Part shown: positions 60,080-62,848 of the stretch, piece by piece
Position numbering within the stretch: the first letter of the stretch is position 1
How the letters are laid out: each line of letters opens with the position of its first letter
Source of the DNA: a virus
Taxonomy: Duplodnaviria; Caudoviricetes
DNA length: 64,000 nt
IMG/VR virus record: IMGVR_UViG_3300037400_001757
Span: 3,219-67,218 of that record
Reading direction: 5' to 3' (one strand)
The notes under the pieces: model-generated
The model's database searches: none
Seen by the model: the letters and a program-made list of their open reading frames with translations, nothing else
What the model was told of the DNA's origin: nothing
Program-made: the position numbers and the translations under genes

Positions 60080-60210
60080 ACGCTGAGAGTAAACACAGGC
60101 GTGCCTATATTTTAAATTAGGTAAAAGTGTAATCTGGTAACTACCCACCATTAAAGTTAGGTAATGCGAGAGTAAACTCAGCTAAAGTAAAATCCGTAGA
60201 TAACACGATA
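60080..60210 (+). ncRNA. Structured RNA motif A, copy 1 (unassigned)
   Basis: Colinear with 62721..62848; compensatory stems and a covarying pseudoknot. Confidence 0.7.
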
Positions 60211-60276
60211 CGATATTCGAAGCAAGGAATATTCTAGGCCCTTGCAGGAATCTTTAAGAAAGGAGAAAGAAGTAGA

Positions 60277-60423
60277 ATGAAGGACAGCACATTTATGGTG
60301 GTATGTTCTATGCTTTCAGGCTTCATTACTGGTTATTTCCAACAGCCAGTTTTGATGGTTGTAAGCATATCTGTTTTCTCTTTCTTAGCATATCTTTCGG
60401 CTAAGAAAGAGTCTGCAGAATAA
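60277..60423 (+). CDS. Small membrane protein (48 aa)
   Basis: AAAGGAG RBS; MKDSTFMVVCSMLSGFITGYFQQPVLMVVSISVFSFLAYLSAKKESAE*. Confidence 0.6.
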   Translation: MKDSTFMVVCSMLSGFITGYFQQPVLMVVSISVFSFLAYLSAKKESAE

Positions 60424-60650
60424 GCCTATATTTTATAGGTTTATTTGCAGAAGTTGCAACTTAGTCCTAGCTAAGATAACAACGTGGTTTGTATCGTATA
60501 ACCAGGCGCACTAAAAACGAGACTGAAAAACTTTCGGGTTTGTTGATAATCCTGAGTATGAAAAATCAACGATGTTCAGATGTCTACTCACTGTATCATA
60601 GAGGCTTAGTTTTCCTCATTTCTAAAAGATACAGGTTATTATTCTTACAA

Positions 60651-60730
60651 CATGTCTTAGTTTAAAATGGAAGAACGACTTATCAATATTTTAATGGTAA
60701 GCAATATAGGTTCAAATCCTATAGACATGT
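60651..60730 (+). ncRNA. tRNA-like element with non-canonical elongated anticodon arm
   Basis: Acceptor CATGTCT/AGACATG, D arm GTTT-AAAATGGAA-GAAC, T arm ATAGG-TTCAAAT-CCTAT; anticodon arm CTTATC-AATATTTTAAT-GGTAAG. Confidence 0.7.
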
Positions 60731-60953
60731 TTTAATTTTCTATTTTCGTGATATACTATAAGGTATGAGAAATCAGTAAATCCTACGGTAGCAAATATTG
60801 TCTTAAAGACATAACGTTGTCTAGTATATCTTAATAGGTCTAGTAAGTTAAAGCCTAGTTTATAGGTAATACTTATAAGACTTTGAACTTGGTTATAACG
60901 AATCTTTAAAAATGATTTCTGTTATGACCTTTTGTACTAGGAGGTACAATATT

Positions 60954-61973
60954 ATGGCTATGAAATTTAACGATAATCTTTTCAACGAATTAAAGAAACT
61001 TACAGTTACTCCATTAGTTATTCCTGCTGAGCCAAACCTAGAAGACGTATTAAGAGTTTGTGAACAGAGAAGCGACACAGCTAGAAAAATGGCATTCAAC
61101 CATAACTGTATCGTAGATGGTTTGCCATTCACTTGGGACTATGTAGTTTACAATGCTGTTTCAGCTGTTGATGATCCTGATGACAAAATTGATGTTACTC
61201 ATAGAGTCCTCACAATACCTATGCAGAAGATAACTACCTTATGGAAATTCTACCTCGACATTGAAGAAACAGGAGAATTATTCTTAAGCGAAGGTAAAGG
61301 CACTAGAAGAACCAGAATTCCTTTGAGTGAATTGAACAGTTTATCTGCCGGAACTAGAAAGCAAATTGCGCATATTGTTTATCAATTAACAACTGGCATG
61401 AGTGCTTTTGATTTCTGTGAAGACCATGGTTCTAGAGTAACTGTCGATTATAGTTTCGTAAATAGTAAATGCGTTCCGCAAGTACATGAAGTACAGAGAG
61501 CAGAATGTTTTACAGAAATTAAAGGCTGTGACTGTGATAAAATTCTAAACCATTATGAATCTGGTAATGAACTTATATACGTTCTTAAATGCGATGACAG
61601 TAGGACATATTATTATCGTGTTATTAAGAACGGAGATATTTTCGAAGGCGTTAAAGATATTACCATGGGTTGCAAAGACACTAATGGAAGATATCTAATG
61701 GGCCTATCTGACAAATTTCCAGAGCATGATAAAGAAGATTTACTATCTATCTTAAGAAATCTTGAACCTCAGACAAGAGGCTTTTTAGATTTTCATAATA
61801 AGATGTTCTATGAAAAATGGTCAGATATTCCTTTTGATGTAAGGCCAGAAATTTTCATAAGACATGAAATAGACACACTCTGTCAGCCTTGTTTCAATGA
61901 TATTCAAGAAATAGATTTGGAATACAACAAGGTTATTTTTGAGTACAGCCATTCTGAAATAAGACGTAGATAA
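60954..61973 (+). CDS. Hypothetical early-region protein (339 aa)
   Basis: Start moved to MAMKF (60954) because AGGAGG precedes it. Confidence 0.8.
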   Translation: MAMKFNDNLFNELKKLTVTPLVIPAEPNLEDVLRVCEQRSDTARKMAFNHNCIVDGLPFTWDYVVYNAVSAVDDPDDKIDVTHRVLTIPMQKITTLWKFYLDIEETGELFLSEGKGTRRTRIPLSELNSLSAGTRKQIAHIVYQLTTGMSAFDFCEDHGSRVTVDYSFVNSKCVPQVHEVQRAECFTEIKGCDCDKILNHYESGNELIYVLKCDDSRTYYYRVIKNGDIFEGVKDITMGCKDTNGRYLMGLSDKFPEHDKEDLLSILRNLEPQTRGFLDFHNKMFYEKWSDIPFDVRPEIFIRHEIDTLCQPCFNDIQEIDLEYNKVIFEYSHSEIRRR

Positions 61974-61987
61974 TTTCTATATAGAGT

Positions 61988-62018
61988 CTCATGGTGGGAA
62001 GAGCTTAGGGGAACCCAC
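61988..62018 (+). ncRNA. Small pseudoknot-like motif B, copy 1
   Basis: CTCATGG-TGGG-AAGAG...GGGGAA-CCCA-C; covaries with 63414..63445. Confidence 0.5.
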
Positions 62019-62048
62019 AAACTAAAACAAGAAAGTTGAGAAAAGAAA

Positions 62049-62690
62049 ATGAAAGATATTAACGATTGCTTACCAATGAACGTTGTTGAAACAATGCGAA
62101 GTACAGGTTGGAATCTAAGGATTTTAATTATTGACTTAACTTATGATGATGTTGACGATGATGAAATTAAAGAATTACGTCATTTTCAAAACATTAGTTA
62201 TAAGTGCCGATATACACCTGTTGCTTATCTTGGTGATGACGGTTGGCTTCTTGACGAAACCGACCAGTACCGATATGCTTGCGACAGAGGCTTAAAAACA
62301 GATACATATCGTGTTATGAGCCCTATAAGAATAACTGTAGAAGATGACGAAGGCCATCTTCTTAATGAGTGCCGGGCATACGCTGGCGATATTATCCATT
62401 TCTTTAGAGGTGGCCCTGGTTATGAAGAACAACTCCAGGTTTTCCACGCATATGTAAATCCAAAGAACTTGAGATATAGTTATGCGAGAAACGAAAATGA
62501 ATATGGATGGTTTTTCACAGACGCTCAACCAAGAAGAAGCTGTCGTAAAAGAAACTATCGGAAGATATTTGGCAAAAAGATATCCGATGGTGGTTACAGT
62601 ACTCGAAGTAATTTTCGTTTATGCCCTTATAGACAAAACTTGGTTGGAGAAAAATACAATTCAGATTTATATGATAGCTGGGAAGATTAA
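62049..62690 (+). CDS. Hypothetical early-region protein (213 aa)
   Basis: Long ORF in the plus block. Confidence 0.75.
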   Translation: MKDINDCLPMNVVETMRSTGWNLRILIIDLTYDDVDDDEIKELRHFQNISYKCRYTPVAYLGDDGWLLDETDQYRYACDRGLKTDTYRVMSPIRITVEDDEGHLLNECRAYAGDIIHFFRGGPGYEEQLQVFHAYVNPKNLRYSYARNENEYGWFFTDAQPRRSCRKRNYRKIFGKKISDGGYSTRSNFRLCPYRQNLVGEKYNSDLYDSWED

Positions 62691-62720
62691 TTAAATCTTT
62701 CTTTCTATTAACCTTTTTCT

Positions 62721-62848
62721 TGGGTGAGAGTAAACACAACCCAGGCATTCTATAACGATGCCAAATTGTAATCCAGTAACCACCGACTGTATAACTTAGG
62801 TGATGTGAGAGTAAACTCAGCTAAAGACAAACCGTTGATAGATACGAT
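62721..62848 (+). ncRNA. Structured RNA motif A, copy 2 (unassigned)
   Basis: See 60080..60210. Confidence 0.7.

Follow-up and report, generated by a model that had tools for sequence, protein, structure and literature searches.

A candidate RNA family with twin GNRA-capped hairpins and a pseudoknot, found in two copies in a rumen jumbo phage

Near the 3′ end of a 64-kb stretch of phage DNA, an element of somewhat more than 130 nt is found twice on the + strand, which raises the question of what is being repeated: a folded RNA, a mobile or DNA-level repeat, or a duplicated segment of no function. We refer to the whole stretch, bases 3219-67218 of the 67-kb IMG/VR virus record IMGVR_UViG_3300037400_001757, as the window. 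The two copies lie at 60080-60215 and 62721-62864 and are 74-79% identical. As described below, their pairing pattern and that of further copies in related contigs indicate that the element is very probably an autonomous folded RNA domain of 130-145 nt, carried on the + strand within co-directional gene strings of a rumen jumbo phage. What such a domain would do is a separate matter, on which several readings have to be weighed.

RESULTS

A shared arrangement of hairpins and a pseudoknot

The 10-mer GAGAGTAAAC has four exact occurrences in the 64 kb, all on the + strand and all within the two copies. This count is by itself not above chance, and the case for a module therefore rests on the pairing pattern.

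The borders of copy 1 (c1; 60080..60215, +) were taken from a bovine-gut allele joining 60080 to 60216. Its first hairpin, P1 (60080..60102), has a lower stem ACGC/GCGU, then a U.G pair and a bulged A; the top of P1, within the same interval, is made of G-C, A.A and G-C closing the loop AGUAAA, that is A[GUAA]A. P2 (60103..60122) pairs GCCUA with UAGGU, the first pair being G.U, and has a 10-nt loop, and P3 (60135..60150) pairs UGGU with ACCA around the loop AACUACCC. Four bases of this P3 loop, UACC (60142-60145), pair in turn with GGUA (60160-60163) across the A-rich linker UUAAAGUUA, giving an H-type pseudoknot (60142..60163). P4 (60166..60182) is a twin of the P1 top and reads GC-GAG[AGUAAA]CUC-(A)-GC. 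A joiner and 3′ tail (60183..60215) with the conserved blocks CUAAAG..AAA.CCGU complete the copy, all on the + strand, and c1 is without the 3′ strand of a further hairpin, P5, present in other types. In copy 2 (c2; 62721..62864, +), P1 is found at 62721-62743, P2 at 62744-62762, P3 at 62774-62789, the pseudoknot at 62781-84:62799-802, P4 at 62805-62821 and the P5 hairpin, with loop ACGAUA, at 62832-62864.

The original prediction had described two copies of an RNA motif with compensatory stems, and all the blocks and coordinates it quoted for both are present in the sequence. The stems were correctly drawn: ACGC/GCGT versus TGGG/CCCA for P1, GCCTA/TAGGT versus GGCAT/ATGCC for P2 and TGGT/ACCA versus CAGT/ACTG for P3. 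So was the pseudoknot, UACC:GGUA (60142-45:60160-63) in copy 1 and CACC:GGUG in copy 2, which covaries in the 11-sequence set described below. The two hairpin-type elements reported for each copy turn out to be the twins P1 and P4.

In the minimum-energy fold of copy 1, a long-range helix GCUGAG:CUCAGC was seen; it is not kept in c2 or in the third type of copy (c3, see below), and the local P4 was preferred.

Covariation in three paralog types

The prediction had also suggested a covariance-model search starting from the module, and this yielded more copies and upheld the covariation. The model, R1, was built from copy 2 and its ortholog in a related locus, L007, only, and includes 21 pairs. 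With it, copy 1 scores 92.9 bits and nine other copies score 52-177 bits; by this model neither the window nor any locus contains an additional copy, the best of the remaining hits having 11.7 bits with E about 1. The extra copies were reached via homologs of the neighbouring 353-aa ORF and of a small ORF, on rumen and bovine-gut metagenome contigs. In total, 11 distinct sequences of three paralog types were obtained. The c1 type is represented in the window only, the c2 type in the window, L007 and L019, and the c3 type in L006, L009, L012/L013, L014/L015, L016, L017, L018 and L019.

Pairs were counted on an alignment, A8, of these 11 distinct sequences, with 25 pairs including the pseudoknot. 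Standard pairs occupy 94.1% of the 270 cells, and P2, P3, the pseudoknot and P4 are each paired in 100% of their cells. Changes on both sides occur in 14 of the 25 pairs, with five of five pairs covarying across paralog types in P2 and three of five in P4. The covariation score was 0.492, against 0.02-0.09 when the 3′ partners were slid by 1-3 columns, a control in which pairing fell to 22-47% of cells; none of 500 shuffles reached the observed covariation. The picture was the same with a set of five sequences. RNAalifold, unaided, predicts P1-P4, and 12 of its 18 pairs are compensated. Among close relatives, substitutions in paired columns all keep the pair (non-standard cells, 0/39). The pseudoknot (columns 67-70:85-88) is paired throughout, with U-A/C-G covariation and two independent U.G variants.

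These pairs also carry information on the strand. G.U wobbles are found in P1 and P2 of c1, P4 of c2, P2 of L007 and of L006, P1 of L014 and the pseudoknots of L016 and L019. Since the C-to-U or A-to-G changes that give G.U here would give A.C mismatches on the other strand, it is the + strand RNA that folds.

Some observations weigh against the fold, or limit the force of these counts. The three paralog types belong to one phage clade and thus represent few independent lineages, and the counts were made on an alignment that had been fitted to the model. Folding energies of single sequences are ordinary (z -1.2 and -0.5); unremarkable energies are usual for short AU-rich hairpins. In c3, the outermost P1 pair and one P1-top pair are broken, and a one-base register shift, judged by eye, would restore pairing.

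GNRA caps and invariant joiners

The GAGAGTAAAC boxes correspond to the tops of the twin hairpins P1 and P4, whose loops read A[GNRA]A. Both hairpins follow one design: a closing G-C pair, an AGNRAA loop, a 3-bp top stem, a bulged A on the 3′ side and a lower stem of 2-4 bp. The P1 loop is GUAA in every copy. In P4 the loop is GNRA without exception, being GUAA in c1 and c2, GUGA in L019, GAAA in L006, L009, L012 and L017, and GCAA in L014, L016, L018 and at a contig end in run X2. The tetraloop class is thus kept while N and R vary, and the P4 stem varies alongside the loop (GAG/CUC, AAG/CUU, AGG/CCU).

The remaining parts are either freely variable in sequence or not variable at all. P2 is a fully variable hairpin stacked beside P1, and P5 is optional among types. 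The invariant unpaired positions are UAAUC before P3, AAC.ACC in the P3 loop, CUAAAG after P4 and AAA.CCGU. UUAGGU, within UUAGGUR, is likewise invariant and contains the 3′ strand of the pseudoknot. An alternative helix UUAG/CUAA can be drawn around P4, which would compete with the pseudoknot for one G; all eight of its positions are invariant. Because the stems are variable, the joiners invariant and the caps restricted to changes within GNRA, the pattern suggests that the RNA folds into a compact tertiary structure and has a specific partner or activity. By analogy, such a pattern is typical of ribozymes, aptamers and polymerase- or ribosome-binding RNAs, and a simple stabiliser hairpin would be expected to look different.

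Distribution and optional occurrence of the module

Copies of the c3 type invariably start 4-15 nt past a homolog of the small ORF, and that ORF in turn comes after a tRNA-like element and a strong terminator. The window stops inside the small ORF that c3 follows in relatives; a third copy is therefore probable immediately past the contig end, and this repeat may be where the assembly broke. Downstream of c3, a third hairpin of the box kind, AAG[AGCAAA]CUU, is found about 20 nt before the ribosome-binding site (RBS) of the 273-288-aa gene (L006:5998-6012, also L009, L016, L017 and L018); the whole spacer of about 255 nt is 92% conserved among six loci.

Wider searches returned little. Exact and degenerate pattern scans for the conserved blocks gave no match in IMG/VR or GTDB genomes, and a scan with the twin-box pattern gave three chance matches, unrelated by eye. 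A scan of 241 million JGI metagenome records gave one contig, L009, with a pattern that would miss copies whose P4 loop is of the GCAA type. Nothing meaningful was obtained among INPHARED phages by megablast and blastn, and no relatives by a related-locus search of IMG/VR with the RNA polymerase (RNAP) beta-like protein or with the alignment of the 353-aa ORF. The family is so far confined to one rare rumen phage clade.

To see how the module is carried within that clade, contigs from four other bovine-gut runs (DNA contigs) were compared with the region. In one of them, 135 nt are replaced by 15 other letters between 60080 and 60216. Copy 1 (60081-60215) is exactly missing from this empty-site allele, which fixes the borders of the module. 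L006, with a 339-aa ORF (P0001) that is 91% identical to the 353-aa ORF of the window, has no c1. At L006:4400-4480 it carries a decayed copy 2 that has lost P1, P3 and P4 but in which the P2 hairpin and the UUAGG region are recognisable; at this site copy 2 is still intact in L007 and L019. Homologs of the small ORF also occur without the module, as with the distant homologs at the P0006 and P0010 loci, where there is no room for one. Several contigs break or recombine at a promoter-like box ending at 59716. In run X2 and in L009, 60958 is joined to 63020, skipping 2061 nt, so that the 353-aa gene contributes its leader and first codons to a fusion with the homolog of the 127-aa gene; this leader swap points to recombination between similar 5′ leaders. 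Given the exact empty site, the decayed copy 2 and the swapped leaders, the module is therefore regarded as a dispensable cassette in a hyperplastic region. When the module is present, its fold is, judging from the substitutions, under strong purifying selection.

The surrounding gene region

The record is estimated at 21% completeness by CheckV, implying a jumbo phage of about 300 kb. Bovine gut or rumen is given as the source of the runs and contigs in which the region or its relatives occur. At 55278-59597 the minus strand encodes an unsplit RNAP beta-like protein, adjoined by anaerobic ribonucleotide reductase (RNR) genes. One of the window's RNR genes, NrdD (51564-53804, minus), carries an intein-like insert at residues ~303-464 (Pfam Intein_splicing, Hint).

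From about 59700 to the end of the window all features are on the + strand. The region is headed by the promoter-like box CATATATATAATTT (59703-59716, +). A 46-aa ORF (59847..59987, +), with a C-terminal hydrophobic stretch and a conserved ACE(V/I)IHxC, precedes copy 1, and its homologs stand directly before every c3-type copy. Then follow copy 1, a 48-aa ORF, a hairpin with a U-run (~60425-60450), a tRNA-like element (60651-60730), the 353-aa ORF, a 213-aa ORF, copy 2, ORFs of 127 and 100 aa, and a second tRNA-like element (63782-63854). The string ends with a strong terminator (63900-63944; -18 kcal/mol), an RBS about 25 nt downstream of it, and the start of a second paralog of the 46-aa ORF (63979..64000, +), of which the first 7 codons (MIRFMEG..) are present before the contig end cuts it. 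The copies had been placed upstream of ORFs; this holds, with the correction that a gene also stands immediately before each of them, in the case of c1 and c3 an ORF of 43-46 aa. Calling these downstream ORFs, or the region, 'early' is an assumption.

The downstream ORFs (48 aa, 127 aa and ~285 aa) are mutually unrelated. No Pfam or PHROG match was found for the flanking and downstream genes, and no RNA-binding protein was recognisable nearby. A homolog search with the 48-aa ORF returned only itself. A consensus scan for sigma-70 promoters and terminators was uninformative in this AT-rich DNA.

The promoter-like box, as (C)ACATATATATAATTT, recurs at the head of gene strings (window 59703-59716, L006:1925-1945, L007:2868-2890, L008:20-40), and its position at 59716 is a breakpoint of mosaic rearrangement, with loose ends and joints, in contigs from three other runs. 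An inverted repeat (TTATATATGTGTA ... TACATATATATAA) is conserved at L006:4255-4350 and L007:2795-2900, where the promoter-like box ahead of the copy 2 site falls within it. The window does not have this repeat, and there the 213-aa ORF is immediately followed by copy 2.

The window's two 'tRNA genes' were called Tyr-ata and Ile-aat by ARAGORN and scored 38 and 48 bits with Rfam. Their acceptor, D and T arms are normal, and neither has a 7-nt anticodon loop. One carries a 6-bp arm with a GAAA cap (CTTCTA GAAA TAGAAG), a capped form that is kept in relatives, and the other has CTTATC-11 nt-GGTAAG. Such elements are also found at L006:5467-5537 and L012:9820-9892. From their appearance, they are perhaps tRNA mimics serving as RNase P/Z processing signals.

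A second duplicated leader stands ~30-45 nt before two start codons (61988-62020 and 63418-63450; also L007:2240-2275 and L009). Here too a hairpin loop pairs with a downstream strand, and the partners covary (GGUGGG..CCCAC versus GGAAGG..CCUUC).

DISCUSSION

Possible roles of the module

Among the roles considered, we tentatively rank first that of a cis-acting transcript-processing, or 'punctuation', element, possibly a self-cleaving one, a reading drawn by analogy. The module would fold during transcription between cistrons, and the polycistronic RNA would then be cleaved, either by the module itself or by a host or phage RNase that the module directs. The anticodon-less tRNA-like elements of the region, which resemble RNase P/Z sites, would act together with the module, and the fates of the neighbouring mRNAs would thereby be uncoupled. 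The presence of two copies in 4.5 kb, with a third probably past the contig end, is in favour of this reading, as are the position of copies between genes of differing identity, the presence or absence of the module among close relatives and the tRNA-like elements without anticodon loops in the region. In the 2015 work of Weinberg et al., multi-copy, gene-independent and patchy occurrence is said to be typical of small self-cleaving phage ribozymes. Several points nevertheless tell against a processing element, and against self-cleavage in particular. The fold is a row of hairpins without an enclosing helix or a multi-way junction, unlike known small self-cleavers, and at about 135 nt it is larger than most of them. 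Rfam scans of the window and of 59900-63100 found no known ribozyme nearby, and none of the runs found to contain the region was an RNA run. Finally, the paralog types keep their own downstream gene in relatives, which would equally fit a 5′-leader role.

The other roles that would suit a folded RNA divide on how the module is placed and on what its hairpins offer. As a protein-binding RNA, which we consider rather unlikely, the module would present its twin hairpins as paired sites for a dimeric phage or host protein and could serve as a translational or stability regulator, as an N/boxB-like site or as a decoy against a host defence nuclease. Each module does contain two near-identical hairpins in which the closing G-C is invariant and which share flanking A's and a bulged A. 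Downstream of c3 there is another of this kind, AAG[AGCAAA]CUU, and the mosaic accessory region is rich in small ORFs of unknown nature, with a paralogous small ORF accompanying c1 and c3. However, free variation within GNRA suits a structural cap or an RNA-RNA contact better than base-specific reading by a protein, no RNA-binding protein is recognisable nearby, and the small ORF looks like a membrane peptide and occurs without the module. Processive antitermination of the put or EAR kind, in which the nascent fold would bind RNA polymerase in cis and cause read-through of intrinsic terminators, is again an analogy and, in our estimate, unlikely. It would account for paralogous copies with compensatory stems inside operons on the coding strand, as in putL/putR, and for the fact that c1 and c2 precede intrinsic terminators (the hairpin and U-run after the 48-aa ORF, ~60425-60450, and 63900-63944) where the space ahead of the next gene would not accommodate a new promoter; the copy 2 of L007 is found about 80 nt past a promoter-like box. 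Placement is inconsistent, though: the strong terminator of L012 (9929-9973) has no module upstream in its transcription unit, c3-type copies always come after a terminator, with the sole copy of L012 and that of L006 after a strong one, and the module can be missing while the downstream genes remain. The original prediction had named a self-cleaving ribozyme, a riboswitch-like leader and a protein-sequestering RNA as alternatives; of these, the riboswitch, a ligand-sensing aptamer that would sit in the 5′ leader of whichever gene follows, seems improbable. The combination of invariant junction nucleotides, a pseudoknot and variable stems does resemble an aptamer, c2 stays with a family of 113-134 aa and c3 with one of 273-288 aa in relatives, and G85 has a choice of partners, in the pseudoknot or at C108 (UUAG/CUAA), a possible switch whose positions are all invariant. 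Yet the downstream genes are unrelated, have no known function and show no constant pathway association; no terminator or platform sequestering a Shine-Dalgarno sequence is conserved across types, the start codon is 62-165 nt further downstream, a module-less allele keeps the same gene, and no Rfam riboswitch matched.

Two further readings explain the repeat in other ways. The presence or absence of the module with sharp borders, and the twin same-strand hairpins near both its ends, as in IS200/IS605 ends, recall a DNA-level or mobile repeat: a miniature IS200/IS605 element (PATE), a REP-like repeat or a solo omega RNA for a 460-aa ORF. This TnpB-like ORF (50078-51460) lies 9 kb away and matches TIGR01766 at 27.4 bits and PF07282 at 14.5 bits, both below cut-off. 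Omega RNAs are hairpin rows with a pseudoknot. We hold any such origin to be highly improbable. The G.U wobbles and the covariation in P2, P3 and the pseudoknot indicate RNA rather than single-stranded DNA hairpins, no Y1 transposase (PF01797) is found in the 67-kb record, the left flanks share no target motif and P1 begins at the very border, and the empty site is not seamless, with its 15 other letters. As for an omega RNA, the TnpB-like gene is not next to the module, whose 3′ end is not the same in all types; beside the 460-aa ORF itself there was no transposase, no recognisable element ends and no omega RNA. That the copies are a segmental duplication of no function, with similarity and stems due to chance, could draw on the 10-mer count and the weak folding z-scores, but is hardly credible when 14 of 25 pairs change on both sides, 94% of cells are paired versus 22-47% in the slid controls, no substitution among close relatives breaks a pair and GNRA is kept through four loop sequences.

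Significance

A well-supported orphan RNA family would be added for jumbo phages, which have been little explored for structured RNAs, and the covariation behind it is unusually clean given so few sequences. The region seems to be organised by RNA modules, namely the module fold, tRNA mimics with tetraloops for anticodons and the second pseudoknot leader. More doubtful is the broader idea that the module is a new catalytic or polymerase-directed RNA class, part of an RNA-only control layer for the accessory or early region of a jumbo phage. It would then be either a put-like RNA that acts on the polymerase or a self-cleaver whose architecture, 'row of hairpins + pseudoknot + twin GNRA', has no precedent, and the layer would consist of the module, the anticodon-less tRNA-like elements and the second duplicated pseudoknot leader. 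Should the module indeed self-cleave or reprogramme RNA polymerase, it would found a new class of self-cleaving or polymerase-acting RNA; as a decoy or protein-binding RNA, it would represent an accessory function new to phages. The distribution is narrow, one rare rumen phage clade so far, and any role assigned to the module is provisional.

Comparison with known RNA systems

At the gathering cut-off, Rfam 15, whose families include riboswitches, ribozymes, EAR, T-box, omega/IS605-orfB motifs and Y RNA, gave only two tRNA matches in the 64 kb, and only tRNA in five related loci. At E<=10, cmscan of 59900-63100 found no ribozyme family and nothing overlapping either copy, and the same was true at the c3 locus. 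Literature searches on the box sequences and on the tRNA-like elements gave nothing relevant. The view that the motif belongs to no known family, already taken in the original prediction, thus stands over the module with Infernal and Rfam 15. Since no known system was a relative in the tests run, we rate the module, from its sequence and predicted fold, as a new RNA family outside every described family.

The prediction had mentioned a loose likeness to pistol ribozymes without assigning the motif to them, and it is indeed not a pistol ribozyme. In both, a hairpin loop pairs with a downstream strand past an A-rich linker, and both occur in phage-like, multi-copy, gene-independent contexts. However, the consensus fold has no pistol P2/P3 enclosing a G-U cleavage site, the pseudoknot is of 4 bp where that of pistol is of 6 bp, and there was no Rfam match at E<=10. 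The motifs that had prompted the comparison are not conserved either: the linker is UUAAAG, UAUAAC or UUAAAC, and the 'GCG' is GUG or GUA in other copies. Likenesses to hammerhead, T-box, DGR, CRISPR-repeat, group I intron and preQ1 RNAs were rejected as well, their core motifs not being conserved and no Rfam match being found.

The putL/putR RNAs of HK022 are also paralogous, cis-acting structured RNAs within one phage, first recognised through compensatory changes, and they too are on the coding strand, inside early operons and upstream of terminators. The put RNA is about 70 nt long, with two stem-loops and no pseudoknot; the Bacillus EAR is about 120 nt long, lies between genes within an operon and has a pseudoknot. 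The module differs from put in its 4-5 hairpins, its twin GNRA caps and its H-type pseudoknot, and from both put and EAR, compared by description and by the Rfam scan, in its inconsistent placement relative to terminators (L012); the scan revealed no kinship with either.

Large lytic phages offer another parallel. The stable RNAs of the phage T4 tRNA cluster (species 1/2, rnaC/rnaD) are non-tRNA RNAs of about 120-140 nt whose function is unknown. Like the module, by description, they sit among tRNA or tRNA-like genes of a large lytic phage and are co-transcribed with them; they are matured like tRNAs, whereas the module has no tRNA-like acceptor or T-arm.

At the level of structural parts the comparison reaches further. 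Group I and II introns, RNase P and riboswitches are set apart from the module, which is far smaller, in which no receptor was identified and for which there was no Rfam intron or RNase P match. What the module shares with them is the use of A[GNRA]A caps conserved as a class rather than as a sequence, and with minor-groove triplex pseudoknots it shares an A-rich linker that crosses a short stem.

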